NCBI GenBank assembly: GCA_947084945.1
Contig: CAMTUP010000015.1
Span: 24,576 to 88,575, forward strand
Source of the DNA: an uncultured Ignavibacteria bacterium
GTDB taxonomy: Bacteria > Bacteroidota > Ignavibacteria > Tepidaquicellales > OLB5
Length of the DNA: 64,000 bases
Direction of reading: 5' to 3'
Under the pieces are notes generated by a model. That model searched no databases. It was not told where the DNA came from and saw nothing but the letters and a program-made list of their open reading frames with translations. Below, piece after piece: positions 6,373 through 60,955 of the stretch; the first letter of the stretch is position 1; every line of letters begins with the position of its first letter. The translations under genes and the position numbers were made by a program.

Positions 6373-6401
6373 TATAAAATTTTGCAACATTAAATATGTG
6401 A

Positions 6402-8372
6402 TTATTTAACCAAAATCATTTTCTTTGTATCAGTAAAATTACCTGATACAAGTTTGTAAAAATATACTCCGCTTGAAAGCATTGATGCATCAAATAGAAC
6501 TGAATTTGAACCCGCATCTTTAATTTCATTAACAAGTGTTTTAACTTCTTTGCCGGTTACATCGTATATTTTTAATGTAACAATCCCTCGTTGTGGTAAC
6601 TGGTAATTTATAACAGTTGCCGGATTAAACGGATTTGGATAATTCTGGCTAAGCGAAAATTCATACGGATTTTCTAACCTGTTATTATCAGTTACAACAT
6701 CAGTTACATTAGTAACCGGTATATCTATGTATGAATTTCTGCTTAAATAAACATAATTATAGCCATTGTTCAGCACAGGAAGAACAAATGGATTAGTCCC
6801 TAAAAACCACTGGTCATCAATATGTGTATCAAGATTTGTGATAATGATCTTAATTTTATTTCCTGCTTTAAATATATGTGAATGCGCCTGACCTTCAAAG
6901 TTTTTGGTTCTCCTGCTGTTAGCTGTATAATTTCTATCGGTATAATTTATCCTGTTAATGAGTTTTTCTTTTCCGTTTGTCTGAACTTCTATAATCTGGA
7001 AATTATACTGTGTAAATGTACTTGCTGATGATAAGTAATCCAGATTAACCTTTGGTATCCCAAGCCATTTTTTATCGCTTGTTAATGCAGTACTTGTAAA
7101 TGATACAGTATTTTTTTTAAATTTTGAAGTAAATGTTGTACCTGTGAACTCCTCATTTACGGCTTCCTGCATTGTAAGTCCGCCAGTAACCTGATTTCTG
7201 ATGGAAGTTCGTGTATTATTATTAGTACCTGCGGTAGTTGTTAAGCGGTTATTAGTATTAAAATACAGCCTGTATGGCGATGTAATATTCTGCAGAGCAA
7301 CTTTAGAGCTATCATGTTTAAAGGTCCAGTATAAACCATTTACCGGATACATTGTTGAAGCATAGTCATAATTAGCTGCTGGCAATTTAGTTCCGGAATA
7401 AGGGAAAAGCCAGTAATAGAACCAATCATTGAAAAACTGCATATGCCATGTGTCTTCTGTGGGTGAATTATCTCCACCATGCCCCTGTACAGCCCCAAGA
7501 TAAAGCCTGAATGTTGAATTAGTATTAAGTGTTGATGCCTTCATTATGCCCGAAGCATTAAAAAACTTATCCTGCCATGAGCCTTCCATTATCAACGGTA
7601 CACGATTATTGGGAATGCTTGTCATAAAATCTCTTCCCAATGGCAGCCAGTATGCAAGACTATCCCAGTAATTCTTACTGCTTGAATATATCCAGTCACT
7701 CATTCTTTCAACCTGCGGAGTATATCTTGCAGTATCGGGAGTGTATTCAACTGTCCATAACAAAGTCATTTTTATACAGCCATTTTCTATCCAGCTTGTT
7801 GCAAAATCTGGAGGAGCAAGCGCTGAAATTATTGTCTTTACATTCATACCCATTGTACAAGCCATATATGGAACAAGTCCGCCTTGCGAACCACCCATTA
7901 TAAGTATGTTTCCGGGATTGATTCCGTTCGGAGTATCCTGTTTAATAAAATTTATGAACTCTATCATATCCTGAGCTTCTATGTTGGATATAAGGTTTGA
8001 TAGTCCGGTTGAATTACCCTGCCCGCGCATACTGAATGTTGTAGTATAATATCCATATTCAGCCTGTGCTTTGGCAAATGCAGCAAGTGTTTCTTTATTA
8101 TCGCCATATCCATGCACGAAAACTACTGTAGGCCAGCCACCTGTTGGTGGTGTACCTTGTGGTATGAATTTTAAAGCATCCAGTATTATGCCATCTCGGA
8201 GGGTAACTGTAAAATCGACCCTTGTTACAGGAACTGCCGGGGCATTGGAATACTTTGGAAGGAGTTTCATATATTCATAGTTATCCCTTGCTCGTTTTTG
8301 CTGGGTATAACTTATGTTATTGAGTATTGTAAAAGAAATTAATGCCAAAAATAGTAATTTAGCTGCTCTCAT
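6402..8372 (-). CDS. Secreted CocE/NonD (S15 X-Pro dipeptidyl-peptidase-like) alpha/beta hydrolase with T9SS C-terminal domain
   Basis: 656 aa with a signal peptide. It has VVFVHGYGDNKE and the nucleophile elbow GGSQGG. The C-terminus is NYPNPFNPATVINYQL...SGVYFYKL...KKMILVK. Confidence 0.8.
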   Translation of the reverse strand: MRAAKLLFLALISFTILNNISYTQQKRARDNYEYMKLLPKYSNAPAVPVTRVDFTVTLRDGIILDALKFIPQGTPPTGGWPTVVFVHGYGDNKETLAAFAKAQAEYGYYTTTFSMRGQGNSTGLSNLISNIEAQDMIEFINFIKQDTPNGINPGNILIMGGSQGGLVPYMACTMGMNVKTIISALAPPDFATSWIENGCIKMTLLWTVEYTPDTARYTPQVERMSDWIYSSSKNYWDSLAYWLPLGRDFMTSIPNNRVPLIMEGSWQDKFFNASGIMKASTLNTNSTFRLYLGAVQGHGGDNSPTEDTWHMQFFNDWFYYWLFPYSGTKLPAANYDYASTMYPVNGLYWTFKHDSSKVALQNITSPYRLYFNTNNRLTTTAGTNNNTRTSIRNQVTGGLTMQEAVNEEFTGTTFTSKFKKNTVSFTSTALTSDKKWLGIPKVNLDYLSSASTFTQYNFQIIEVQTNGKEKLINRINYTDRNYTANSRRTKNFEGQAHSHIFKAGNKIKIIITNLDTHIDDQWFLGTNPFVLPVLNNGYNYVYLSRNSYIDIPVTNVTDVVTDNNRLENPYEFSLSQNYPNPFNPATVINYQLPQRGIVTLKIYDVTGKEVKTLVNEIKDAGSNSVLFDASMLSSGVYFYKLVSGNFTDTKKMILVK

Positions 8373-8485
8373 AGTAATTTTTCCCTACTTTATATATTGT
8401 GTAAAATTAATAAAAATAGTGTTTTGTTCCAATACAAAAATCAAAATCTTATATTTGATAAATCCCTTTAAAATAGGATTTTAAG

Positions 8486-8519
8486 AAAAAAATAAAAACC
8501 CCGCTTTTTGAGCAGGGTT
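8486..8519 (-). terminator. Rho-independent terminator after the 8802-10835 gene
   Basis: Minus strand reads aaccctgc-tcaaaaa-gcggggtt (8-bp stem including one G-U pair), followed by tttttattttttt. Confidence 0.6.
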
Positions 8520-8579
8520 TATTTGAAGTAACTTGATATGGATCAATTATCTTTAGTTACTTTTGTAAAGCGAAATTTA

Positions 8580-8681
8580 TTATGCTTTTCTCATTTGTTT
8601 GTTACTATAAAACAGGTAACCTAGTATTACAAATGGTATTAACAGAAACACAAAGATTACCGGTAATATTAATAGTGACAT
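8580..8681 (-). CDS. Possible 33-aa single-pass membrane peptide
   Basis: ATG at 8681 gives MSLLILPVIFVFLLIPFVILGYLFYSNKQMRKA, then a stop. Too short for the ORF track; supported only by hydrophobicity and the intergenic position. Confidence 0.2.
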   Translation of the reverse strand: MSLLILPVIFVFLLIPFVILGYLFYSNKQMRKA

Positions 8682-8801
8682 TTTTGACTCTCTTCTAATA
8701 AATTATTTTTCATTTTATCTTTTTTAAAGCAGGGATATCCCTAAAATTGTTCCCTAACTATCCCTGCTTATTTTTATTTTACTTAATTTATACTTTAAGT
8801 T

Positions 8802-10835
8802 TTATTTTACTAATGTCATTTTCTTTACTTCAGAGAAGTTTCCAGCGGTTAGTCTGTAGAAATATATACCGCTTGAAAGGTTCTGAGCATTGAACATTAC
8901 ATTGTATGAACCGGGGTTTTGCACGTCATTTACTAAAGTCTGAACTTCCCTGCCTAATAGGTCATATATCTTCAATTCAACCTTCTGGGCATCAGCAATT
9001 GAATACTGTATCATTGTGCTGGGGTTAAACGGATTCGGGAAATTCTGTGTCAAGCTATATGAATACGGTGAATTATTTTCGGGTGAATTTTCTTCAGCAA
9101 ACAAAACATCAATCCTGTTATATACATTGGTAACAATAGGAAGCTCAACATATGAATTGCTGCTAAGATATACTGTATGGTCGCCATTTTTCATTGTAGG
9201 TAATACAAATGGGTTTGTACCAAAGAACTCAGCATCTGTATGCGCTTTATCAAGATTTGTTATTATGACCTGGATCTTGCTTCCTGCCTGGAAGATATGT
9301 GAATGTGCCTGACCTCTGAATGTAACCTGCCTTCTTGAGCCTTTGGTATAATTTCTATCTGTAAAATTAGCGCGGTTTACAAATCTTCTTTCTCCGCTTG
9401 CGAGTACTTCATATATCTGGTAATTAAACTGTGCGAATGTTTGAGCTGCTGATTTATAATCAAGCCTTACAACGGGTGTGCCTGTCCACTCAAGATTAGT
9501 TGTTAATGCAGATGAAAGAAACTTCACTGAATCTTTTTTGAATTTTGCATTAAAATTTGCTCCATTAAATTCATCATATACTGCCTGCTGCAATGTATAT
9601 CCTGAAGTTATTCTGTTCCTCAAAGTAACATTGTTATTGCCTGATTGAACTGTAGTTTTTAAGACACCATTCCTATTCAGGTAAAGTCTCATTGGAGTAG
9701 ATATATTTCTAAGGAGTGTTGTTGAGCTATCATGTGTAAATGAGAAATACTGATTATTTACAACCGGAAAATGTGTTGATGCATATTGATATTTTGCCTG
9801 GGTAAATATTGTTGTTTCCATTCCCCATAATGTCTGATAAAAGAAATTATTGAACCAATCCATATGCCAAATATCTTCTGTTAAAGATATATCGCTGCCA
9901 TGTCCGCGAACTGCGCCAAGGTATGATGTTAATGGAGCGTTTGTAATTTTATCAATATGCAGCATCCAGCCATCTGCATTAAAGAATTTATCCTGCCATG
10001 CTGCTTCTACAAGAACTGGAGTTGTTATATTTGGAAGTCCTGTTATAAAATCTCTATCGCGTGGAAGCCAGTAAGCCAGACTATCCCAATATTGTTTATT
10101 ATCTGCATATATCCAGTCGCTCATTCTGCTTACCTGTGAATTATACCTTGCTGTATCAGGTGTATATTCAATTGTCCATAATAATGTCATTTTTGTACAA
10201 CCGTTCTCTATCCAGCTTGAAGCAAAGTCCGGTGGAGCAACTGAATTAATAATTGCTGCAACCTGCATACCTCTGATTGCTGCTATTAATGGAAGCGCGC
10301 CGCCCTGTGAACCGCCCATAATAAGTATCTTAGATGGGTTTGAACCATTTACTGAATCAGCTTTTAACCATAAAACTATTTCTTTTAAGTCATCTGCTTC
10401 TAATGTACTTATTAGATTTGATTGTCCGGTTGAAAATCCCTGACCGCGGACACTGAATGTCATAGTGTAATAACCATATTCAGCCTGCGCACGGCAGAAA
10501 TCTGCAAGTGTTTCTTTGTTATCGCCATATCCGTGTACCATCATAACTGTCATCCAGCCACCTGCGGGGGGAGTAACTTCGGGTATAAATTTTAAGCAAT
10601 CAATAATAACACCATCACGCATTGTAATAGTGAAATCAGTGCGGTTTACAACTAAATTTGCATCACCTGTGCTGCTTGGGAGTAAATATGAGGGTGTCCA
10701 TGAATTAAGTTTACCGGGTTTACTCATTACCTTACTTTGTGTATAGATAACTTCGGTGTAAGACATAAAAAAAAGAGCCAATGATAAGCATATCATTAAA
10801 AGTCTCTTTGTGTTTCGGGTTTTAATAGCATTCAT
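8802..10835 (-). CDS. Secreted CocE/NonD (S15-like) alpha/beta hydrolase with T9SS C-terminal domain, paralog of 6402-8372
   Basis: 677 aa. Long blocks are near-identical to the 6402-8372 product (APPDFASSWIENGCTKMTLLWTIEYTPDTARY, HGYGDNKETLA, GGSQGG). The C-terminus is NFPNPFNPSTMIQYSI...SGIYFYRL...KKMTLVK. Confidence 0.8.
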   Translation of the reverse strand: MNAIKTRNTKRLLMICLSLALFFMSYTEVIYTQSKVMSKPGKLNSWTPSYLLPSSTGDANLVVNRTDFTITMRDGVIIDCLKFIPEVTPPAGGWMTVMMVHGYGDNKETLADFCRAQAEYGYYTMTFSVRGQGFSTGQSNLISTLEADDLKEIVLWLKADSVNGSNPSKILIMGGSQGGALPLIAAIRGMQVAAIINSVAPPDFASSWIENGCTKMTLLWTIEYTPDTARYNSQVSRMSDWIYADNKQYWDSLAYWLPRDRDFITGLPNITTPVLVEAAWQDKFFNADGWMLHIDKITNAPLTSYLGAVRGHGSDISLTEDIWHMDWFNNFFYQTLWGMETTIFTQAKYQYASTHFPVVNNQYFSFTHDSSTTLLRNISTPMRLYLNRNGVLKTTVQSGNNNVTLRNRITSGYTLQQAVYDEFNGANFNAKFKKDSVKFLSSALTTNLEWTGTPVVRLDYKSAAQTFAQFNYQIYEVLASGERRFVNRANFTDRNYTKGSRRQVTFRGQAHSHIFQAGSKIQVIITNLDKAHTDAEFFGTNPFVLPTMKNGDHTVYLSSNSYVELPIVTNVYNRIDVLFAEENSPENNSPYSYSLTQNFPNPFNPSTMIQYSIADAQKVELKIYDLLGREVQTLVNDVQNPGSYNVMFNAQNLSSGIYFYRLTAGNFSEVKKMTLVK

Positions 10836-10878
10836 CTTTATAGATGTCCTTTCAGAATAGATTAGTTATTGATTAAAA

Positions 10879-11044
10879 ATAATCTTTTCTGCTATCGCAT
10901 TCCCTACGAATTAGTATGTTACAAATATAGCCTCTTGTCCACTCCTAAAACAATCGTAAACTTAAGTAAATCTGTAATTACACTCTAAACCTAATTAATC
11001 ATACTTTCACTGTATAACGAAAAAACCTATATTATCTAACGTAT
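10879..11044 (-). repeat. Copy 1 of a ~165-bp promoter/leader repeat (partner at 20188-20351)
   Basis: Aligns by eye in direct orientation with 20188-20351. A ~75-nt core is almost identical (cgttatacagtgaaagtatgaWtaattaggtttagagtgtaattacaKatttacttaagtttacgattgttttagg on the minus strand). It lies immediately upstream of the ATG at 10835. Confidence 0.85.
10923..10930 (-). promoter_or_regulatory. Candidate Bacteroidetes-type -7 box (TAnnTTTG)
   Basis: Minus strand reads TATATTTG, with a TTG about 21 nt upstream (gaTTGttttagg). It is conserved in both repeat copies and lies about 85 nt upstream of the ATG. Confidence 0.4.
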
Positions 11045-11184
11045 GAGGGTGAGGATTGAGATGAAGGAGTCTTTTGGGAAGTTAAAAGTGGCGATATTAG
11101 CGTTTTTTTGAGTATGCGGGAAAAGTACTAAAAACAGTCAACTTTTAAGCCTGCTAGAGTAGAAAAGCGACCATGTCTAAGACA

Positions 11185-11219
11185 GGTGAAGACTGCATAA
11201 AGCGCAGAAAGCCTTCACC
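11185..11219. other. Nested stem-loop in a noncoding junction
   Basis: ggtgaag-a-ctgc-ataaagc-gcag-aaagc-cttcacc: outer 7-bp and inner 4-bp complementary arms. Confidence 0.45.
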
Positions 11220-11232
11220 ACTGAGGTTCACG

Positions 11233-11254
11233 GAGGACACAGAGGACACAGAGG
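11233..11254. repeat. Short tandem repeat, 9-nt unit gaggacaca, about 2.4 copies
   Basis: Read directly: gaggacaca gaggacaca gagg. Confidence 0.7.
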
Positions 11255-11266
11255 TATGCAATATTT

Positions 11267-11292
11267 CTTTGTTGGTGACAACACCAACAAAG
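11267..11292. other. Perfect 11-bp hairpin just upstream of the first rhs fragment
   Basis: ctttgttggtg-acaa-caccaacaaag. No flanking T run on either strand, so it is not a classical terminator. Confidence 0.7.
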
Positions 11293-11329
11293 GGCTAAAA
11301 TTTTCTATATTTATGATAACTCAAACAGA

Positions 11330-12835
11330 TTGTTAAAAACACAAAATGATGATGGAAATAATACATCAACATTTAACATTATCAACGGCTATGATAAAGA
11401 CGGCAATTTTGTAGGCATGAAGCGTTATGGCTCGTCTAATAATCTTGCAGATAATTTTACTTATACATATTTTAGCGGTACTAATAAACTGCAAAAGGTA
11501 ACAGGACAGATGAACGATGATTACAGCTATGATGCAAATGGCAATGTTACATATGATAATGTTAATAAAAATACCGAAATTAAATATGATCACCGCAATT
11601 TGATGATAGAAAACAAAAATATTTCATCACTTAATACATACCGGACATTATACCGATACGATGAAGCAGGTAACAGGATAAGTAAAAAGCAATATCTCTA
11701 TATAAACTCTCCCCCGCCCGGAGGTATTGTCCGAAGGACTCCTCTCGGAGAAGGAATTGAAAGCGGTACTGGATATGGTGACAGCATTATAGTAGATGTA
11801 GGCGACGGAAGCGGTTACTGGTCTTTGGTTGGCAATACGTATTATGTCCGCGATGTTTCAGGTAAAGAAATTGCAATATATTCAGGAAGTTCTTTAACTC
11901 AATGGAATATTTGGGGACTTGATAACGTGGGTAAGATTAATTCAGATACTACTCGCAATTATTACCTGAAAGACCATTTGGGAAGCGTAAGAGTAGTTTT
12001 GAACAGTACTAATACAGTAATCTCTGCTCAAGACTATGATTGTTGGGGCTATTTACTTGAAGGGCGAACTTATGAATCCGTGTCATCAGTTAATCAGCGA
12101 TACAAATTTACCGGTAAAGAAAGAGATAGAGATTTAGAAAGTAATTATGATTATTTTGGTGCGAGGTATTATGATAGCAGGATAGGAAGGTGGGGCGGAG
12201 TTGAGCCAAAATATGATAAGTATGTAGGAGTAACACCATATAATTATTCCTTAAACAATCCTATAATAATGATTGATCCAAACGGTAAAGATCCATATAG
12301 GAAGTATCTTGTATCCTTGCAAACAATCTCAAATAATATCAGTTCATTTGGTGATGCAAAATCTAATTCATTGGGTGCTGTACAATCTTTTTATGATATA
12401 GCATCATTTTATAATGATACTAAATATCGTTATACTTTTACTGAAAAATCAGGATTTATTGATTTGAAGCATTTCTTTGCTTCTGCTGGTTTAGTTGCTT
12501 TAAGTCTAGCAAAAAATAAAGCTGAAAATTATGGATTTTTATATGAAGTATTACAAGACTTAGGAATTGCTGATGAAAATTCGGCATACGATCCGGAAGA
12601 TTTGCCTTCAAATAAATTAGGTGCTGAATTTGGTGAGTATTTTGCAAATAGTGAATTAACTTTAGAAGAAGCGTTTGTGGAATTTATGAAAGAGCAAGGT
12701 TCTAAAGATTTGGATGAATCATATTTCAGCATTTGGTATATACCATATGACGAAAATAGCAGACCTTTAGAAAGAAGCAGGTCAAATAGCCCATTTTACG
12801 GTGAAAGAGTCCGAAAAAATTATCTTGAAAATTAA
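11330..12835 (+). CDS. 5'-truncated RHS/YD-repeat protein: about 320 aa of repeat/core plus a 181-aa C-terminal toxin-like domain (CT1, unknown family)
   Basis: YD repeats (YSYDANGNVTYD, YRYDEAGNRISK) are followed by RHS-core-end motifs YYLKDHLGSVRVV, YDCWGY, YKFTGKERD, NYDYFGARYYDSRIGRW and PYNYSLNNPIIMIDPNGK (DPNG at 12275-12286). The frame opens only at 11321, and the track start is a TTG. A full Rhs shell would need well over 1000 additional N-terminal residues. Confidence 0.85.
   Translation: MLKTQNDDGNNTSTFNIINGYDKDGNFVGMKRYGSSNNLADNFTYTYFSGTNKLQKVTGQMNDDYSYDANGNVTYDNVNKNTEIKYDHRNLMIENKNISSLNTYRTLYRYDEAGNRISKKQYLYINSPPPGGIVRRTPLGEGIESGTGYGDSIIVDVGDGSGYWSLVGNTYYVRDVSGKEIAIYSGSSLTQWNIWGLDNVGKINSDTTRNYYLKDHLGSVRVVLNSTNTVISAQDYDCWGYLLEGRTYESVSSVNQRYKFTGKERDRDLESNYDYFGARYYDSRIGRWGGVEPKYDKYVGVTPYNYSLNNPIIMIDPNGKDPYRKYLVSLQTISNNISSFGDAKSNSLGAVQSFYDIASFYNDTKYRYTFTEKSGFIDLKHFFASAGLVALSLAKNKAENYGFLYEVLQDLGIADENSAYDPEDLPSNKLGAEFGEYFANSELTLEEAFVEFMKEQGSKDLDESYFSIWYIPYDENSRPLERSRSNSPFYGERVRKNYLEN
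11729..11749. repeat. Palindromic element gtccgaaggactcctctcgga, in frame (encodes VRRTPLG)
   Basis: Arms tccgaagga / tcctctcgga are complementary apart from a 1-nt bulge. The same element occurs at 15253-15272 and 19493-19512. Confidence 0.7.
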
Positions 12836-12837
12836 AA

Positions 12838-13404
12838 ATGATGATAAAAAAAATTATTATCATAGTACTCTTTTTTGGGGTGGTATATCTATTAAGAATA
12901 TTTCTACTAAATATTCCATTTATTGGGTGGGCTTACGAAGCCTTTGAAATTAAGATTTCCGTTTTCCTATATAATTTTGTTACGAATCCGATTTTAGTAT
13001 CCACATCAGTAATTATTATTATATTAACAAACGTAATTTTATTTAAGAAAAATATTGGTTGGAAATATATTTACATTCAATTTATTCTTTATGTAATTTT
13101 GTTGTTTTGGATTTATGAAGGTTTTAGAATTGAAAATTTAATTTCTTTAGGAAAGAAAATCACTATAGAAGTTGAAAAAGTATTTGCCACTGATAATAAA
13201 TTGCCTCAAAATCTTGACGATATTACCAAGTATAATTTTGATCAAAATGAAGCATCGCAAATAAAAGAAAATTTCAAATATGAACTGGATTTTGCTCAGC
13301 CTATTCCTAAGTATGGATATAAATTGGATTTAGAACCTACTTTTCTAAAATACCATAGGTTTGTATGTAAGCCTTGGACGAAAAAGTTTATAATGTTTGA
13401 TTAA
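12838..13404 (+). CDS. Putative immunity protein 1 (polytopic membrane N-half, soluble C-half)
   Basis: ATG lies 2 nt after the CT1 stop; 188 aa. Hydrophobic segments are IIIIVLFFGVVYLL, ILVSTSVIIIILTNVILF and YIYIQFILYVILLFWIY. The immunity call rests on position only. Confidence 0.55.
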   Translation: MMIKKIIIIVLFFGVVYLLRIFLLNIPFIGWAYEAFEIKISVFLYNFVTNPILVSTSVIIIILTNVILFKKNIGWKYIYIQFILYVILLFWIYEGFRIENLISLGKKITIEVEKVFATDNKLPQNLDDITKYNFDQNEASQIKENFKYELDFAQPIPKYGYKLDLEPTFLKYHRFVCKPWTKKFIMFD

Positions 13405-14470
13405 TAATTTTGTCTGTATACAAATTGATGTAGGCGACGGAAGCGGTTACTGGTCTTTGGTTAGCAATACGTATTATGTCCGTGATATTTCAGGTAAAGA
13501 AATTGCAATATATTCAGGAAGTTCTTTAACTCAATGGAATATTTGGGGACTTGATAACGTGGGTAAGATTAATTCAGATACTACTCGCAATTATTACCTA
13601 AAAGACCATTTGGGAAGTATAAGAGTAGTTTTGAACAGTACTAATACGGTTATCAGTGCCAATGATTATGATTGCTGGGGTTATCCACTGGAAAACCGTA
13701 CTTACCAGCCTGAGAACAGTAAATATAAGTTTACCGGTAAGGAAAGAGATAAAGATTTGGAGAATAATTACGATTACTTCGGGGTGAGATATTATGACAG
13801 CAGGATTGGTAGATGGGGAGGTGTTGAGCCGTTGTTGGATAATAATATTAGTTTTACCCCATATAATTACTGTAAAAATAATCCTGTAATATTTATTGAT
13901 CCAAATGGCGCATGGGATGAATATGTAAATGAAGCGGGCAAGTATCTTGGCTCAGATAATGATCCGAATTCAAATGAAGTGAGAGTTACGAGTGACGAAG
14001 AGTGGAATCAAACAAATTCAAAACAATCATCAAGTGAAGAAAAGAGAAATGAACTTCAGTCTAGAAGCACCCTTTTGAATGAGTACAAGTTTGGAATATC
14101 AATTTCTGAGCAAACTTGGAATGTCTTGGAATCACAAAATGTTGAACGGTTAGATCCCTATGTTATAAACCAAAGTGATTATACTATTTATTATAAGCCC
14201 GAAGAAGGTGACTTACCATGGCCAATTGCTCCACATACCGATTTGTATACAAGGGTAGATGGTTTAAATACCCCATGGATATCTGACGGAAATGTTTACA
14301 AAGTTCCAGATTATTATAGGACTGTAGTTAACTCAAAAGGTGTACCAGATATAAGAGGCATTCCATTAGAAATAATAGGTGAAGTTGTTTCAAAAATAAG
14401 ACCACTGCTTGGCGAAATTAAATCACCTGGTTCTGATTGGAACAACCTAAGGGATGTATACAAAAAATGA
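13397..14470 (+). CDS. Orphan RHS core-end fragment fused to C-terminal toxin-like domain CT2 (186 aa, unknown family)
   Basis: Nucleotide homology to the first fragment starts at about 13427 (DVGDGSGYWSLV...). The stretches 11856-11967 and 13488-13599 are identical over 112 nt. The DPNG boundary is at 13898-13909, then unrelated sequence. The track start is a TTG inside the preceding gene, probably not a real start. Confidence 0.8.
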   Translation: MINNFVCIQIDVGDGSGYWSLVSNTYYVRDISGKEIAIYSGSSLTQWNIWGLDNVGKINSDTTRNYYLKDHLGSIRVVLNSTNTVISANDYDCWGYPLENRTYQPENSKYKFTGKERDKDLENNYDYFGVRYYDSRIGRWGGVEPLLDNNISFTPYNYCKNNPVIFIDPNGAWDEYVNEAGKYLGSDNDPNSNEVRVTSDEEWNQTNSKQSSSEEKRNELQSRSTLLNEYKFGISISEQTWNVLESQNVERLDPYVINQSDYTIYYKPEEGDLPWPIAPHTDLYTRVDGLNTPWISDGNVYKVPDYYRTVVNSKGVPDIRGIPLEIIGEVVSKIRPLLGEIKSPGSDWNNLRDVYKK

Positions 14471-14820
14471 AAAAACTAAAAAATATCTTAGGTTTTAGTG
14501 TTTATATACCATTAATATTTCCAATTGCTTTATATTCTTATTATTTAAGAATTTATATCATATTAGGTCATATTCCTGAAATTAAGAATAAAGATGAGTT
14601 TAATATTACCATGAACTTGCATAGTTTATTAGTATTCAATTCATTTACATTTACTTTTTTAATAGTTTTTATTAATATTTTGTTGATAATTATATGTATC
14701 ATAAAATTAAAGAATAGACCCGATAATTCAATATTAATAGGCTTTACAATTAGTACATTAATTTGGGCTATAGTAGTAATATTTGATCCATTTGGCATTT
14801 TTAGTTGGATTGTAGGTTAA
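14467..14820 (+). CDS. Putative immunity protein 2 (small polytopic membrane protein)
   Basis: ATGA start/stop overlap with CT2. MKKLKNILGFSVYIPLIFPIALYSYYL..., with three strongly hydrophobic segments; 117 aa. Confidence 0.55.
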   Translation: MKKLKNILGFSVYIPLIFPIALYSYYLRIYIILGHIPEIKNKDEFNITMNLHSLLVFNSFTFTFLIVFINILLIIICIIKLKNRPDNSILIGFTISTLIWAIVVIFDPFGIFSWIVG

Positions 14821-14862
14821 TTTTTCCCCTGTTCCTACCAACAACGGCGTAAGACCCGCTGG

Positions 14863-15983
14863 AAATACACAGGTGGTTCCCCTAACCCGGTGTATGATGA
14901 GGATAGCCCAAGTTGGATTTTGCAGAGCGATGAATTTTATGTAAGAGATATTTCAGGTAAAGAAATTGCAATATATAACGGTTCAAGCTTAACACAATGG
15001 AATATTTGGGGACTTGATAATATAGGAAAAATAAACGCTGATACTACACGAAATTATTATTTGAAAGATCATTTGGGAAGCGTAAGAGTAGTTTTGAACA
15101 GTACTAATACAGTAATCTCTGCTCAAGACTATGATTGTTGGGGCTATATACTTGAAGGGCGAACTTATGAATCTGTGTCATCAGTTAATCAGCGATACAA
15201 GTTTACGGGCAAAGAAAGAGATAAAGATTTAGAAAGTAATTATGATTATTTTGTCCGAAGGACTCCTTTGGAGGCGCAAGGTATTATGATAGCAGGATAG
15301 CCAATTGGACAAGCACTGACCCGCTCTTTGAAAAGCATTTTGATTATTCACCGTATAATTATGTACTCAGGTGTCCTACTGTTTTACTGGATCCTGATGG
15401 AAAACAAATTAGATTTTCAAATGATGCATCACTCAGAAATAATGAGTTGCAATCATTAAAAAATACGTTACCTGGAAAATATTCCGAAAATGTTAATTAC
15501 ATTCAAGATGAAAAAGGAAATTACATCTTAGATGCTGTACTTCTAGAAAAGGCATCAACTGACTCGAATCCTGAAGAGTACAATCGATTAATGGACATTG
15601 CAAAGTTTAATGAAATTACTGACATAAAGGCATGGAATAATGAACCAATATCATACGATAAAGGTACATTTACTCTCGGTACATTTAAAGATGAAAACGG
15701 AAGTAAGAAATTAAGAGCTGGTTATACCTTAGTCTCAGGTAAAGTAGACAATCCAAGTGAAAATAAAGATTTATCTACAAGCGGTAATAACGAAGTGTAT
15801 TACTTATGGCTTATGAACGAAACTTCAGTTGCTAGCACATTAGCCCATGAATTGTATGTTCATGTTTGGAATTATATTAAAGGAACAGGGTATACACATC
15901 AAGATGAAAATATAAATAATCAGTCAGAATATTTTGAAAGTAAAGCTAAACAAAACTATGAAGAACGTAAAAATGAAAAATAA
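14863..15983 (+). pseudogene. Orphan RHS core-end + CT3 toxin-like domain, frameshifted by a 20-nt insertion
   Basis: Track ORFs 14890-15300 and 15447-15983 are two halves of one module. Reading ...NYDYF, then the insertion at 15253-15272, the text resumes in the other frame as GARYYDSRIANWTSTDPLFEKHFDYSPYNYVLRCPTVLLDPDGKQ (DPDG at 15390-15401). Deleting the 20 nt restores a single 357-codon frame from 14890. Confidence 0.8.
15253..15272. repeat. 20-nt palindromic insertion gtccgaaggactcctttgga disrupting cassette 3
   Basis: Cassette 4 reads gattattttggcgcaag at the same site, whereas cassette 3 reads gattatttt[gtccgaaggactcctttgga]ggcgcaag. The arms tccgaagga / tcctttgga pair with one G-T. 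Confidence 0.75.
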
Positions 15984-16620
15984 GACAATTTTCGTAAGTT
16001 TCTTTTTTATTTTACTTTCATCACATACTATAATGATTATAAGTGATGACTTGGTTGAACTAAAGGTACTGCCAAATAGAATAAGCAATAACTTAGTTTG
16101 TGAATCCATAATGTATTCAATTACAAATAATTATTCGGATACAATAGTTACTTTTAGTGATGTATTTATAGAGGGCTTGACTGATACTATATCTATATTC
16201 CCAATGTCAAGTATGTTTGCACCAAACCTCGCAATATTAAAGTCACCTAATAACTCACGTTTATTTGTTGATGGTTATTTTGAAATACTTTTTTATCAAT
16301 TTCCGAATTTGTTGGTCATTCCACCAGGTGCAACAAAAGTAATTAATCTGAATATTGCCAATTACAAAACAATTTTAAGTCAAGACATATGGAATATAAC
16401 TGGTATAATTTCGGTTGCACATAAATATGATATTGACACTATTGTCTCAATTAATTATCCCAAAAGATATAGTGAATATGTTAGAGCATTAGATTATCAA
16501 GATACAGTTTATATTTATTCAAAAACTACAGGTTCTATTAATTCAATATATAAAAACGAAAGTTTAGAGCAAATTAATTTAATAAAAGAGGCATTTAAGT
16601 TTAGGTATTATTCAAAGTAA
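15973..16620 (+). CDS. Putative immunity protein 3 (signal peptide or N-terminal anchor plus soluble domain)
   Basis: The ATG at 15973 overlaps the CT3 stop region (aaaATGaaaaaTAA). MKNKTIFVSFFFILLSSHTIMII..., 215 aa. The track ORF starts earlier, at 15934. Confidence 0.5.
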   Translation: MKNKTIFVSFFFILLSSHTIMIISDDLVELKVLPNRISNNLVCESIMYSITNNYSDTIVTFSDVFIEGLTDTISIFPMSSMFAPNLAILKSPNNSRLFVDGYFEILFYQFPNLLVIPPGATKVINLNIANYKTILSQDIWNITGIISVAHKYDIDTIVSINYPKRYSEYVRALDYQDTVYIYSKTTGSINSIYKNESLEQINLIKEAFKFRYYSK

Positions 16621-16705
16621 TCCAAATACACAGAAAGCACACCTGACCGGTGTTTGATGTTTCGGGTGATTCACCGCCATGGACACTGCAGAGTGATGAG
16701 TATTA

Positions 16706-16735
16706 ACTGTCTTCGCCACGGCTCAACCAGTCAAG
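16706..16735. other. 30-nt insertion creating an in-frame TAA in the core-homology part of cassette 4
   Basis: Cassette 3 reads cagagcgatgaattttatgtaagagat. Cassette 4 reads cagagtgatgagtatta[actgtcttcgccacggctcaaccagtcaag]tgttagagat. The stop codon is at 16704-16706. Confidence 0.6.
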
Positions 16736-16802
16736 TGTTAGAGATGTTAGCGGTAAGGAAATAGCGATATACTCAGGAAGCTCATTAACGCAATGGAATA
16801 TC

Positions 16803-17633
16803 TTGGGCTTGGATAATGTTGGCAAGATTAATGCCGATACCACAAGAAATTATTATTTAAAAGATCATTTGGGAAGCGTAAGAGTAGTTTTGAACAGTAC
16901 TAATACGGTTATTAGTGCCAATGATTACGACTGTTGGGGTTATTTACTTGAAGGGCGAACTTATGAATCTGTGTCATCAGTTAATCAGCGATACAAGTTT
17001 ACGGGCAAAGAACGGGATAGAGATTTAGAAAGTAATTATGATTATTTTGGCGCAAGATATTATGATTCACGTATAGCCAACTGGACAAGCATTGACCCGC
17101 TCTTTGAAAAGCATTTTGATTACTCGCCGTATAATTATGTGTTGAGAAACCCGTTAGTGTTGATTGACCCGGATGGGAAGCAAGTAGATATAAAAGAACT
17201 ATCAGACCCTATATATCATATTAACAAAGAAGTGGGATTTATTTATGATTATGCAATCTCTGTGAATAATAAATTAGCAGAGCAAAGCAAAAAATTAAAT
17301 AATACTGCAAAAGAATGGATTCCTAAGTTTGCTTTTAGAAAAGGAGTTGAAATTGCCATGGAATTTGTTGCTTTAAAACTTCAAATGGAAGCAAAATTTA
17401 TGATTAAAATAACTGGTGTTGTGTTACAGCTAGCATTAGATACTAGAGAACTGGGTCCAAAATCGGAACAAGATAAAATGGATGAAATAAATGAAGAGGT
17501 ATATGGTAAAAAGAAGAGAATTGACGAAAATAATGACAAAAAAGAAGAAAAGAAGGAAGAAAAAAAACAAGAAAGCAAAAACACTGAATATAATAAAATT
17601 AAGTTAATACCATTTAAAATTTTTGGGTTTTAA
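16803..17633 (+). CDS. Orphan RHS core-end fragment fused to CT4 (151 aa, hydrophobic helix plus K/E-rich tail)
   Basis: Core homology actually begins at 16624, 4 nt after the preceding stop, but is interrupted by the 16706-16735 insertion. The frame is open from 16707. The core end is ...NYDYFGARYYDSRIANWTSIDPLFEKHFDYSPYNYVLRNPLVLIDPDGKQ (DPDG at 17166-17177). Confidence 0.75.
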   Translation: MGLDNVGKINADTTRNYYLKDHLGSVRVVLNSTNTVISANDYDCWGYLLEGRTYESVSSVNQRYKFTGKERDRDLESNYDYFGARYYDSRIANWTSIDPLFEKHFDYSPYNYVLRNPLVLIDPDGKQVDIKELSDPIYHINKEVGFIYDYAISVNNKLAEQSKKLNNTAKEWIPKFAFRKGVEIAMEFVALKLQMEAKFMIKITGVVLQLALDTRELGPKSEQDKMDEINEEVYGKKKRIDENNDKKEEKKEEKKQESKNTEYNKIKLIPFKIFGF

Positions 17634-17637
17634 ATCT

Positions 17638-17871
17638 ATGGAATTCATTATATTTATTTTACTGTTTATATTATTTGAACTACTTGGCAAAAAGAGTAAG
17701 AATATTACGCTTTGTATCGGAGGTAATATTTTAAAAATTGTAAAAGGAAAAATATTTAATAAAGAATATTTAATTAATCATAAAAAAATAGCACAAACAA
17801 TTGGATATGCAGTTTTAATTTCTTTCCTTTTTAGCATATCGTTTTTTTTAAGTATTATTTTTGGTAATTAG
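17638..17871 (+). CDS. Putative immunity protein 4 (two-TM mini-protein)
   Basis: ATG lies 5 nt after the CT4 stop. MEFIIFILLFILFELLG ... IGYAVLISFLFSISFFLSIIFG; 77 aa. Confidence 0.5.
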   Translation: MEFIIFILLFILFELLGKKSKNITLCIGGNILKIVKGKIFNKEYLINHKKIAQTIGYAVLISFLFSISFFLSIIFGN

Positions 17872-17916
17872 TAACGCAATGCTGACACTACTCGCAATTA
17901 TTACCTAAAAGACCAT

Positions 17917-18810
17917 TTGGGAAGTATAAGAGTAGTTTTGAACAGTACTAATACGGTAATATCTGCTCAAGACTATGATTGTTGGGGTTATTTACTTGAA
18001 GGGCGAACTTATGAATCTGTGTCATCAGTTAATCAGCGATACAAATTTACCGGTAAGGAAAGAGATAAAGATTTGGAGAATAATTACGATTACTTCGGGG
18101 TGAGATATTATGACAGCAGGATTGGTAGATGGGGAGGTGTTGAGCCGTTGTTGGATAAGTATGTAAGTTGGAGCCCTTATAATTATGGTTTATGTAATCC
18201 AATAATTTTAAAAGATGTGAATGGATTAGATGTATTTGTTGCATTTTCAGGTTGGGGTATGCATAAATCAGGAGAAATTATTGACCCTTCAGAATATTCG
18301 CCAACTTCTGAAACTGGAACCAACGTTTTATTATATGATTTACAGAAAACTATTAATGATAACAACATTAATGATTTTGATATTCGAGGATATTATGCAA
18401 GTTCGAGTGGTAGTGAAATTGAAGAGGCATTTAATTTTATTAAACAAAATTTAGAAAATTCAGATGAAAAAGTATATCTGTATGGTTACAGCATGGGTGG
18501 AATAAATATTGTAGAGCTTGCAGATATGTTAGGTGAAGCAGGTATAAGCGTTGAGTTATTATTTACGATTGATGCAGATAAACCATTTACTGGTAGTGAG
18601 CAAAATATACCTAGTAATGTAATTGAAAATTGGAATTTTTATCAAACTAATAAAGAATTACCATTCTTTTCAAGTGGTAGTGTGAATAAAGCATTTGATT
18701 TGAAAAAAACTACAATATTAAATATTAAAAAATCTGATCCTCATATGCAGATGGATGAAGAAACGGGTTCAGCTGTTCTTAGAAAAATTTACGGTTCAAT
18801 TATAAAGTAA
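17917..18810 (+). CDS. Orphan RHS core-end fragment fused to CT5, an alpha/beta-hydrolase lipase/esterase-like toxin domain
   Basis: Homology starts at about 17878 (NADTTRNYYLKDHLGSIRVV) and the frame is open from 17875. The core ends at ...PYNYGLCNPIILKDVNGL (18214-18225). The CT has a GxSxG nucleophile elbow, YLYGYSMGG (Ser codon 18490-18492). Confidence 0.8.
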   Translation: MGSIRVVLNSTNTVISAQDYDCWGYLLEGRTYESVSSVNQRYKFTGKERDKDLENNYDYFGVRYYDSRIGRWGGVEPLLDKYVSWSPYNYGLCNPIILKDVNGLDVFVAFSGWGMHKSGEIIDPSEYSPTSETGTNVLLYDLQKTINDNNINDFDIRGYYASSSGSEIEEAFNFIKQNLENSDEKVYLYGYSMGGINIVELADMLGEAGISVELLFTIDADKPFTGSEQNIPSNVIENWNFYQTNKELPFFSSGSVNKAFDLKKTTILNIKKSDPHMQMDEETGSAVLRKIYGSIIK

Positions 18811-18817
18811 TTATAAA

Positions 18818-19108
18818 ATGAAAATTATAAAATTTATTTCTGCTATCGCAATTTTGTTTTCTATATTCATGTTTTCTTCCATGTATTTTAATTTATATCC
18901 CCCTCTTATTTTTAAAGCATTTTCAAATTATTTTTTTCAATTTTGGATTGTAATTGTTCTGGTCGCATTTAGTTTATCAATATTTTCAATATTTAAGATT
19001 AAATTAAAGAATAATAAAAAACATTATAATTTATTATTTATTAACACTGCTCTACTTGGGTTAGTAATAGTATATTTTGTCTTTGTTTTTTTTGTTCATA
19101 AGCCTTAA
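18818..19108 (+). CDS. Putative immunity protein 5 (three-TM membrane protein)
   Basis: 96 aa, starting 8 nt after the CT5 stop. Hydrophobic segments are IIKFISAIAILFSIFMFSSMYF, FWIVIVLVAFSLSIFSIF and LLFINTALLGLVIVYFVFVFFV. Confidence 0.55.
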   Translation: MKIIKFISAIAILFSIFMFSSMYFNLYPPLIFKAFSNYFFQFWIVIVLVAFSLSIFSIFKIKLKNNKKHYNLLFINTALLGLVIVYFVFVFFVHKP

Positions 19109-19204
19109 ACATTTGTTTGTGAGAATATGTAATTTTGAAGACTTTAATATAGTTATGTAAGAGACACTTGACGCAAATATGAAAATATCTTAACACTCCA
19201 GTGA

Positions 19205-19627
19205 ACAAGAATTATTCAGGATGATTTTCTTTACAAATATGTGAGCGGCACAAACAGGCTAAGAAATATTGGACATGGACAAAATTATACCTATGACCCC
19301 AACGGCAATGTAACTTTAGATGATTTGAATAAAAACACCGAAATAAAATATGACCACCGCAATTTGATGATTGAAAACAAAAATGTTCTTTCTCTTAGTA
19401 CATACATGACAAGATACCGCTATGACGAAGCCGGAAATAGGATAAGTAAAAAGCAATATCTCTATATAAACTCTCCCCCGCCCGGTGGAATTGTCCGAAG
19501 GACTCCTCTCGGTGAAGGCGGTAATGGATACGGAGATAGTATTATTGTGGATGTAGGCGATGGATCAGGCTACTGGACTTTGGTTGGCAATATGTATTAT
19601 GACAAGGATTTTAGTTGTAAGGAATAA
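19205..19627 (+). pseudogene. Terminal RHS repeat fragment duplicating the 5' part of the 11330-12835 gene
   Basis: DDFLYKYVSGTNRLRN...NKNTEIKYDHRNLMIENKN...YRYDEAGNRISKKQYLYINSPPPGGIVRRTPLGEG..GYGDSIIVDVGDGSGYWTLVGNMYY is colinear with residues ~41-172 of the first fragment. It then decays (DKDFSCKE, stop), with no core end or toxin. Confidence 0.75.
19493..19512. repeat. Third copy of the palindromic element (gtccgaaggactcctctcgg), in frame
   Basis: Read directly; same context as 11729-11749 (PPPGGIVRRTPLGEG). Confidence 0.7.
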
Positions 19628-19640
19628 ATATACTTCATAA

Positions 19641-19672
19641 CAAAAAACCCCTGCTCTAATGTAGAACAGAGG
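19641..19672 (-). terminator. Rho-independent terminator of the 19702-20151 gene
   Basis: Minus strand reads cctctgttcta-cat-tagagcagggg (11-bp stem including two G-U pairs), followed by ttttttg. Confidence 0.75.
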
Positions 19673-19701
19673 TTTAAAATTTTCAATATATAAAAATTAG
19701 C

Positions 19702-20151
19702 TTACTTTATGATATTCAATTTTCTTACTTCTTTGTACTTTCCAACAACTAAGCGGTAATAATAAGTGTCCTTGGTCAAATTAGCCTGCTTAAGCTCTGC
19801 CGAAAATTCACCCTTTGGTTTATTATCATCAATTAACACTTTTAACTCTCTGCCCTTTGTATCAAAGATAGAAAACCTAACATACTCACCCTGCGGAATA
19901 GAAAAACTGAATAATGTATTATTTTCAACTAAAAGCATATCGCTCTGCTCAAGCTCGCTGGTACTTAGTGAGTTAGCTTCTGTTGATGTTAAATTATCGG
20001 GGTTAACTGAGCAACCAGTCAAGTTAGTATTACCTGCAAATGCAGTATTGCCAGCTATGCATAAAAAAAGAAGCATTGATAACATTGCTGTCAATTGCTT
20101 CGTTGATAAAAAACTTTGGGTTTTACGGTTTTGGGTCTGATTAGCTTTCAT
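19702..20151 (-). CDS. Minimal T9SS cargo: signal peptide, short Ser/Thr/Asn-rich linker and a T9SS C-terminal sorting domain
   Basis: 149 aa. Hydrophobic h-region LTAMLSMLLFLCIAGNTAFA. The C-terminus FSIPQGEYVRFSIFDTKGRELKVLIDD...DTYYYRLVVGKYKEVRKLNIIK resembles the other CTDs in the window. Confidence 0.7.
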   Translation of the reverse strand: MKANQTQNRKTQSFLSTKQLTAMLSMLLFLCIAGNTAFAGNTNLTGCSVNPDNLTSTEANSLSTSELEQSDMLLVENNTLFSFSIPQGEYVRFSIFDTKGRELKVLIDDNKPKGEFSAELKQANLTKDTYYYRLVVGKYKEVRKLNIIK

Positions 20152-20187
20152 TTTAAAATTACCTTTTAAGAAGTAGATTTATTATTT

Positions 20188-20351
20188 AATAATCTCTTCT
20201 GCTATGGTCTTTCCCTACCGATTAGTGATACAAATATAGCCTGCTGCCCGACCCTAAAACAATCGTAAACTTAAGTAAATATGTAATTACACTCTAAACC
20301 TAATTATTCATACTTTCACTGTATAACGTTAGCCCGATATTCTCTAACGTA
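20188..20351 (-). repeat. Copy 2 of the ~165-bp promoter/leader repeat (partner at 10879-11044)
   Basis: Direct-orientation alignment with copy 1. It lies immediately upstream of the ATG at 20151. Confidence 0.85.
20231..20238 (-). promoter_or_regulatory. Candidate -7 box TATATTTG (copy 2)
   Basis: Same position within the repeat as 10923-10930. Confidence 0.4.
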
Positions 20352-60932: not shown

Positions 60933-60955
60933 CTCCAAGGGAGTCCCTTTGGGAC
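60933..60955. other. Double mini-hairpin in the sucD leader
   Basis: ctcc-aag-ggag followed by tccc-ttt-ggga; pattern related to the rhs palindrome tcc-gaa-gga-c-tcc-ttt-gga. Confidence 0.45.

Follow-up and report, generated by a model that had tools for sequence, protein, structure and literature searches.

In enterobacterial rhs loci, a conserved core ends in a DPxG motif, beyond which an AT-richer, unrelated tip is followed by a small immunity open reading frame (ORF); further tips stand in tandem, each behind a core stub without start signals, and the cores recombine with one another (PMC2935791, PMC3150448, PMC3967940). The C-terminal displacement model accounts for the evolution of such loci (Jackson et al., 2009, PMC2935791), and activation of orphan rhs-CT modules has been described (Poole et al., 2011, PMC3150448; Koskiniemi et al., 2014, PMC3967940). 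In the phylum of the Ignavibacteria, rhs loci are hardly described in the literature. Here we analyze an rhs array on the plus strand at positions 11279–19627 of a 64,000-nt stretch of contig CAMTUP010000015.1 from an uncultured Ignavibacteria bacterium (the window), which shares all of these traits with the enterobacterial loci. We read the array, made up of a 5'-deleted rhs gene, four orphan modules of core, tip and small ORF, and a terminal scrap of shell, as a headless rhs locus of an Ignavibacteria-type genome; very likely it was built by displacement and would now serve as an immunity set and as donor DNA. The main-gene-plus-orphan logic of Rhs toxins thereby extends to Ignavibacteria. 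An earlier interpretation of the same DNA made from its letters alone (the sequence-only reading) is right in substance; the layout is known from elsewhere, and current understanding of Rhs systems is unchanged.

Nucleotide and profile comparison establishes the anatomy of the array as a truncated head, four core/tip cassettes and a sixth piece of shell. Six segments had been credited with an RHS core end. Five plus-strand segments do have this core-end text in common and turn into unrelated sequence after a DPxG or DVxG motif; the sixth is YD-repeat shell only. The D of the motif lies at 12275, 13898, 15390, 17166 and 18214, exactly where the five boundaries had been placed. Against profile cut-offs of 32.5 bits for TIGR03696, 22 bits for PF05593 and 15.8 bits for TIGR01643, the RHS-core and RHS-repeat matches anticipated by the sequence-only reading are present: TIGR03696 scores 50.9 bits in the head (cassette 1), 54.6 in cassette 2, 56.6 in cassette 4 and 45.6 in cassette 5, and PF05593 (RHS repeats) scores 25.0 bits in the head and 25.3 bits in segment 6. 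The segments are also homologous at the nucleotide level, as had been supposed. Cassettes 2–5 repeat the last 100–500 nt of the shell and core of the head at 70–89% nucleotide identity, from the start of homology to the core end at 13415/13427–13909 (cassette 2), 14848–15404 (cassette 3), 16647–17180 (cassette 4) and 17878–18225 (cassette 5), and the reported identity of 11856–11967 to 13488–13599 is exact over 112 nt. Homology was said to return 4 to about 45 nt after each small ORF; it resumes 6–27 nt past the first four, imm1 to imm4, and only ~100 nt past imm5. All ten tip and partner ORFs (77–220 codons) are open in stop-rich DNA of ~30% GC. The 64-kb window contains no rhs sequence besides the array, and Rfam gave no family match over its whole length.

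The head (11279–12835, plus strand) consists of a YD-shell fragment (~11300–11953), a core (11954–12289, with DPNG at 12275–12286) and tip CT1 (12290–12832). Its frame opens at 11279, directly after a TGA at 11276–11278 and 51 nt ahead of the TTG at 11330, where the sequence-only reading had counted 9 nt to the called start, and its YD homology begins at ~11300. The gene thus retains ~330 aa of YD shell plus core, of which ~225 aa lie ahead of the core, and then tip 1. Its truncation, which the sequence-only reading had recognized, is established by 16–17 full-length relatives that have 1,740–2,050 aa ahead of the core and are 2,030–2,330 aa long in total (about 2,100 aa typically). Alignment with the head begins at residue 459 in fragment P0012 and at about residue 1551 in the full-length relatives; the head lacks ~1,550 N-terminal residues including the signal peptide, roughly three quarters of the protein, and with them a complete shell and the N-terminal export/trafficking region. 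A family of short Rhs proteins had been considered, as the listed relatives of the head reach at most 877 aa; the 2,030–2,330-aa genes in genome loci rule it out. Upstream of the head, the non-coding junction at 11044–11278 is unique sequence, with no homologue among 135 compared loci and no similarity to the equivalent junction of the syntenic locus L008 described below. A GC-richer stretch just upstream of the head (11190–11260) holds the imperfect tandem CACGGAGGACACAGAGGACACAGAGG at 11229–11254, a motif that occurs this once in the window and in none of the compared loci.

The cassettes downstream have the build of orphan modules: each carries a partial core with no N-terminal region or start signals, then a tip and an ORF. 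Ahead of the core, cassettes 2–5 have 6–76 aa of open frame with TTG or GTG starts only, as stated in the sequence-only reading, which had found no convincing ATG. Cassette 2 (13394–14470, plus strand, as are the others) is homologous to the head from 13415–13427, reaches its core end at 13909 and continues into tip CT2 (13910–14467); the 112-nt exact match is the one it shares with the head. Cassette 3 (14821–15983) is disrupted and was recovered by tblastn as two pieces in different frames, the 5' homology and first core half in 14821–15297 and the second core half with tip CT3 (15405–15980) in 15246–15980. Because a 20-nt insertion splits the core, cassette 3 stays below the TIGR03696 cut-off; its 3' half alone scores 29.8 bits, against 32.5 bits required. 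Cassette 4 (16647–17633) has an open frame at 16707–17633, a core end at 17180 and tip CT4 at 17181–17630. In cassette 5 (17875–18810), homology begins at 17878, the core ends at 18225 in DVNG and not in DPxG, and tip CT5 occupies 18226–18807. Segment 6 (19205–19627, plus strand) is a 3'-truncated YD-shell fragment that begins ~100 nt after imm5 and has 82% identity to head positions 11520–11846. It reaches 19.2 bits with TIGR01643 (cut-off 15.8) and has no TIGR03696 match, core end, tip or partner ORF. It abuts the terminator of a convergent gene (19702–20151), a terminator-like hairpin at 19675–19645 on the minus strand.

A full-length main rhs gene upstream of the orphans is missing here and present in relatives. 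When 185,579 species genomes were scanned for the pattern, 76 loci emerged, nearly all in metagenome-assembled genomes (MAGs) of Ignavibacteria, and sixteen of the 76 hold full-length frames of the size given above; loci and contigs of the comparison carry L numbers. Main genes followed by one to six orphans were found in L007 (five orphans), L076 (six), L012, L020, L032, L072 and L073, so the enterobacteria-like layout that had been proposed does exist in this lineage (1 + 5 in L007, 1 + 6 in L076). The arrays of L007, L076, L012 and L073 resemble that of the window in core family (50–82% amino acid identity), in the tip families CT1, CT3 and CT5 and in spacing; the window differs by the loss of the ~1,550-aa N-terminal part and, set against L008, by the inversion of its array with respect to the shared flanking genes. 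Headless arrays are about as frequent as headed ones (~17 versus 13), in a count of loci preceded by 3 kb or more of non-rhs DNA, after removal of duplicates and of four misclassified distant loci. This near-parity bears on whether orphans are kept for immunity or for recombination. Headless arrays also occur on long-read MAG contigs, for example L011 and L030, and the one in L004 adjoins an IS110 transposase. An exact scan of GTDB representative genomes with a conserved core 38-mer returned 0 matches, and the best identity in a protein-guided scan of metagenome contigs was 59–76%. The host had been taken for a genome of the Fibrobacteres–Chlorobi–Bacteroidetes (FCB) type with a type IX secretion system (T9SS), which agrees with flanking genes for PorZ and for proteins with T9SS sorting domains and with close relatives that are all Ignavibacteria/FCB MAGs.

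The full-length Rhs proteins begin with the conserved motif MFNERG (MFNERGYYKS...NGNL) and a signal or anchor of the Sec type. In the four proteins tested, Pfam detected RHS repeats only; it recognized no domain in the first ~1,000 aa of the full-length genes (L005, L007, L010, L012, L015 and others), upstream of which no conserved accessory gene stands out. The window locus departs from enterobacterial rhs loci in several respects: it has no full-length main gene; its full-length relatives are proteins of ~2,100 aa with a Sec-type signal, without a PAAR- or VgrG-linked N-terminus and without linked type VI secretion system (T6SS) genes; its host is of the Ignavibacteria type with a T9SS; and its predicted immunity proteins are mostly integral to the membrane.

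A syntenic headless array lies in L008 (DDTQ01000011.1, genome UBA2360, a 1.19-Mb contig), where 6464–19384 is syntenic to window positions 6401–26913. The shared neighbours are a TonB-dependent receptor (77% nucleotide identity), an S15 peptidase with a T9SS tail and small T9SS-tail proteins. The L008 array has two cassettes with tips different from those of the window. Compared between the two loci, the array is inverted with respect to the flanks, and the small-protein gene is on the other side. The first L008 fragment starts ~70 nt further into the shell and is decayed, with stops and insertions. A single truncation event shared by both loci was considered and is not shown, as the truncation points are ~70 nt apart and the junctions unrelated. 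The rhs remnant in this neighbourhood nonetheless predates the two lineages or is recurrent in them.

The five cores have recombined with one another. They are mosaics, with maximum chi-square breakpoints that exceed all 10,000 permutations in three triplets (p ≤ 1e-4). Cassette 5 is 95–97% identical to cassettes 1 and 3 in one block and matches cassette 2 at 100% in the 90 columns that follow (113 nt exact); cassette 3 tracks cassette 1 (97–98%) and then cassette 4 (87–100%). The exact tracts of 112–113 nt between cores show that gene conversion is recent. The same decoupling of 5' region and tip is seen in L045, where a cassette 4-type 5' region is joined to a different tip. Tips (28–36% GC) and partner ORFs (20–27%) are compositionally distinct from the cores (37–39%), and the tips are evolutionarily decoupled from them. 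AT-rich tips and partner ORFs together with mosaic cores fit the C-terminal displacement model (PMC2935791).

Recurrence elsewhere marks the tips, 150–194 codons each, as real tip families. Four of the five (CT1, CT2, CT3 and CT5) are found again behind RHS cores: five other loci have a CT1-like sequence after the core, three (L019, L017 and L039) a CT3-like one and seven a CT5-like one, and the CT3-like tip of L017 is succeeded by an IM3-like ORF. An exhaustive HMMER search assigned 105 cluster representatives to the CT2 family, in which the match is always C-terminal and which includes two 1,450-aa DUF6443-RHS proteins. In 32 homologues of CT2, G10, G14, N87, Y113, D117 and G118 are invariant. 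We take the tips to represent toxin families, the toxicity of which is predicted on this indirect evidence.

Two tips offer hints of activity. CT1 (181 aa) contains GFIDLKH, in which G55, D58 and H61 are invariant or nearly so in 17 homologues, so that Gly stands six positions and xD four positions ahead of a conserved His. A Gly six positions before the His and a DK or xD four before it are marks of the CapCone clade of the Lipocone superfamily, for whose toxins an extracytoplasmic attack on lipid head groups is predicted and immunity proteins of the membrane or lipoprotein type are reported (Burroughs et al., 2025, PMC12419801). The AF2 model of CT1, with a mean predicted local distance difference test (pLDDT) score of 86.7, shows a β-hairpin followed by helices. 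CT1 resembles the superfamily in the motif, a weak DUF4056 match, the hairpin before the His helix in the model and the membrane-embedded partner; it differs in a Pfam score under the gathering cut-off and in a S/GxxSxx-Asp motif that could not be located with confidence. CT1 thus looks like a candidate Lipocone/CapCone toxin that would target lipids. CT5 carries GYSMGG, a GxSxG-type motif, and looks like a candidate α/β-hydrolase. PDB sequence searches with CT1, CT2, CT3 and CT5 returned nothing significant, the best match of CT5 being a monoacylglycerol lipase at E = 0.013, and a search for homologous proteins with CT5 returned CT5 itself only.

Each tip is followed by a putative immunity ORF on the plus strand. 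These partners are imm1 (12838–13404, 188 aa, 26% GC, three hydrophobic spans and a soluble C-terminal part), imm2 (14467–14820, 117 aa, 21% GC, about four spans), imm3 (15958–16620, 220 aa, ATG start, one N-terminal signal-like hydrophobic span), imm4 (17638–17871, 77 aa, 20% GC, two spans) and imm5 (18818–19108, 96 aa, 21% GC, three to four spans). The sequence-only reading had placed each of them 2–8 nt after its tip or in an ATGA overlap. This is so for four: the ATG lies 2, 4 and 7 nt past the CT1, CT4 and CT5 stops for imm1, imm4 and imm5, and imm2 overlaps the CT2 stop in ATGA; imm3 departs from it, with an ATG at 15958 or 15973 that overlaps the tip-3 stop by 11–26 nt. The CT1–imm1 pair is also present on the independent Logan contig L003. 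Four of the five products (IM1, IM2, IM4 and IM5) are predicted to be multi-pass membrane proteins. Because the partners have 2–4 hydrophobic spans or, in IM3, a signal-like N-terminus, we infer that the toxins act in the envelope, which would also suit Sec-exported carriers. The Sec-exported appearance of the full-length proteins, the lack of a T6SS link and the membrane immunity proteins together hint at envelope-acting toxins and at a delivery route that has not been studied.

These features can be joined in one history. Incoming units of core, tip and immunity gene would have entered by recombination with the core while the gene was still full-length, and C-terminal displacement would have moved the older tips further downstream. 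The repeated cores would then have reshuffled the cassettes by gene conversion, and a later deletion would have cost the main gene its signal peptide and ~1,550 residues. In the resulting state no cassette of this array should be able to yield a deliverable toxin, and the small insertions in the 5' homology of cassettes 3 and 4 would be additional lesions. Most likely the array now acts as an immunity set that would protect from envelope-acting Rhs toxins made by relatives. It would also be donor DNA, passing on a tip with its immunity gene by recombination through 100–500 nt of core, should a full-length rhs gene exist elsewhere in the genome.

Alternatively, immunity might be the main reason for which the locus is kept. 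In that case the five small membrane or exported proteins would be expressed and protect against Rhs toxins of related strains, with the tips as mere passengers. Orphan immunity islands of gut Bacteroidales are an acquired interbacterial defence. Orphan immunity genes of gut Bacteroidales are described as protecting against T6SS toxins (PMC12247911). The islands resemble the array as immunity clusters without working cognate delivery at the locus, for which protection is plausible; they differ in that each immunity ORF of the window still follows a core stub and an intact tip, the structure of displaced tips. None of the five partner ORFs is broken, each begins with an ATG in tight coupling to the stop ahead of it, and headless arrays are frequent in the lineage, the syntenic one of UBA2360 having other tips. 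The tips, however, are as intact as the immunity ORFs, where decay would be expected in a pure immunity island, and a scan for σ70-type promoters did no better than on shuffled sequence. We regard a pure immunity island as possible but doubtful; it is also compatible with the displacement history. A relic that has lost all function and decays after deletion of the main gene is unlikely. The head and segment 6 are truncated at the array ends, cassette 3 is frameshifted and cassette 4 has an inserted stop, and small palindromic insertions build up in orphan cores of many MAGs (~22 of 190) and in none of 17 full-length genes, although this difference is not significant. Yet ten ORFs of 77–220 codons are still open in AT-rich DNA, the insertions of the array lie only in the 5' homology and never in tips, the exact tracts of 112–113 nt show recent gene conversion, and the syntenic UBA2360 array carries different, intact tips.

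The cassettes could instead act inside the cell as toxin–antitoxin-like modules expressed from promoters within the rhs sequence, since internal promoters and such behaviour are described for main and orphan rhs genes of Salmonella (Starsta et al., 2020, PMC7043789). Each core copy does contain TAGTTTTG, a match of the TAnnTTTG type, at 11994, 13626, 15089, 16885 and 17933. This motif, however, has only six specified bases, lies within VVL codons with its upstream TTTG 13 nt away, and is probably a by-product of coding because it is not conserved in L008. There are no in-frame ATG starts, and with four membrane proteins and one protein with a signal peptide the partners point to the envelope and not to the producer cytoplasm. 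We therefore hold this alternative to be very unlikely. An error in the assembly of the MAG is scarcely credible as the source of the headless state or of the cassette order, even though the exact repeats exceed common k-mers and same-strain Logan assemblies break at the cores and at a direct repeat, D6, that brackets the array. The unique junction (through 11300 from 11044) runs directly into in-frame YD repeats, headless arrays are found on the long-read contigs named above, and L003 reproduces core 1, CT1, imm1 and the start of cassette 2.

Several results weigh against a displacement-built headless locus of toxin tips as we describe it. CT4 has no detected relative in the compared loci. 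The DUF4056 (PF13265) match of CT1 is sub-threshold, with 21.0 bits (E = 2.4e-4) where the gathering score is 23.6, as are those of CT5 to a thioesterase (22.8 bits, cut-off 26.4), to Tle1-like proteins (21.2 bits, cut-off 27) and to an α/β-hydrolase. The models of CT1 and CT2 (pLDDT 93.8 for the latter) have no Foldseek neighbour in the PDB; confident models without such a neighbour make both tips candidates for new toxin folds. The σ70-type promoter scan, noted above, was negative. Finally, the 112–113-nt exact repeats lie on a MAG contig, and because short-read assemblies of the same strain fragment at these repeats the cassette order rests on one assembly, the stretch shown by L003 being the only one confirmed independently.

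The direct repeat D6 brackets the whole array together with a 149-aa gene. Its left copy, D6a (10812–11043, minus strand), covers the promoter/leader and first codons of an S15-peptidase/T9SS-cargo gene (8802–10835, minus strand); the right copy, D6b (20128–20351, minus strand), is the promoter/leader upstream of the 149-aa T9SS-cargo gene at 19702–20151. Identity between the copies is ~80% across 234 nt and rises to 91% in a block of 103 nt. Regions of this type, 170–230 nt long, occur in five copies in two genomes upstream of T9SS-cargo genes (S15 peptidase and small Por_Secre_tail proteins), the L008 copies lying at 14966–15179, 17882–18053 and 18720–18885. D6a contains CTATATTTGTA, which fits the Bacteroidetes-type TAnnTTTG element; invariant blocks of the D6-type region are TACAGTGAA, CGATTGTTTT, GCTATATTTGTAT and GGTAGGG. 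A structured RNA leader was considered and set aside, as no compensatory pairs were found and a promoter/operator region fits better. Att-like ends of a mobile island were also rejected, as D6 precedes several T9SS-cargo genes in L008. Same-strain short-read contigs from two samples end inside D6, L001 and L002 at ~10973 and L081 at ~20277. A D6b-type base (A, not C, at 10972) follows D6a-specific sequence, which is one diagnostic base only. The contig ends fit either a 54-nt exact repeat in that strain or a coexisting haplotype that lacks 10973–20282, the whole array.

Two small insertions interrupt the array. The first, the 20-nt near-palindromic GTCCGAAGGACTCCTTTGGA at 15253–15272 (plus strand), frameshifts the core of cassette 3 between NYDYF and GARYY and is absent from the other four cores. 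In-frame relatives of the 20-nt motif are found in the head (11729–11748) and in segment 6 (19493–19512), with 0 expected by chance, and a similar copy lies between genes at 60933–60955. This family, E1, comprises near-palindromic double hairpins of 20–23 nt, such as GTCC-GAA-GGAC plus TCC-TTT-GGA. Stem bases vary between copies with pairing kept, some variants having changes on both arms. E1-type elements are also present in other rhs loci (L009 at 3068, L059 at 2558, L079 at 260 and 2296, L094 at 3534), and two other MAGs have related copies in rhs orphans, at LTQW^NIWGL; intergenic DNA holds related copies as well. For a splice-like or translational-bypass element no support was found. A patch copied from the head is possible for cassette 3 alone (17-nt exact match); because related elements occur at other sites and in other genomes, a dispersed repeat family is favoured. 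The second insertion, 30 nt with an in-frame TAA (ACTGTCTTCGCCACGGCTCAACCAGTCAAG, 16706–16735, plus strand), lies inside the EYY^VRD codons of the 5' homology of cassette 4. Another Ignavibacteria MAG, L045, shares this 30-nt insertion (1096–1125) at the same site ahead of its different tip.

Small palindromic insertions of the cassette 3 kind, seen in orphan cores of many Ignavibacteria MAGs, cluster at few core positions, and several families are each present in more than one genome. We regard them as a dispersed repeat family that is probably tolerated in silent DNA. A bolder proposal is that the 20- and 30-nt insertions are miniature palindromic elements (19–42 nt) that spread within and between Ignavibacteria genomes, hit conserved rhs-core codons (often TG^G of Trp, or TAT) and act as on/off lesions of orphan cassettes, the syntenic headless arrays being a selected, still-exchanging archive and not debris; we think this improbable. 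GC-rich hairpins are not enriched in rhs DNA (0.108 per kb versus 0.148 per kb outside). Two more families of hairpin insertions, 30–35 nt long, were noted: E2 (CCTGACTTATACAGCGCAAGCTGGAGAAGT) and E3 (GGAGCCTG-CCCCCGC-loop-GCGGGGG-AT). Both turn up repeatedly in Ignavibacteria MAGs, many of which have them at one of a few conserved codons of the rhs core, often after the TG of a Trp codon or in place of TAT, with none seen in the 17 full-length genes; the copies lie at L008 9224 and 9642, L009 2953, L060 1789, L087 4230, L092 2898 and 4801, L082 11972, L029 8837, L049 2425, L052 12482, L061 2638, L069 392 and 1906, L071 485, L018 279 and L104 1254.

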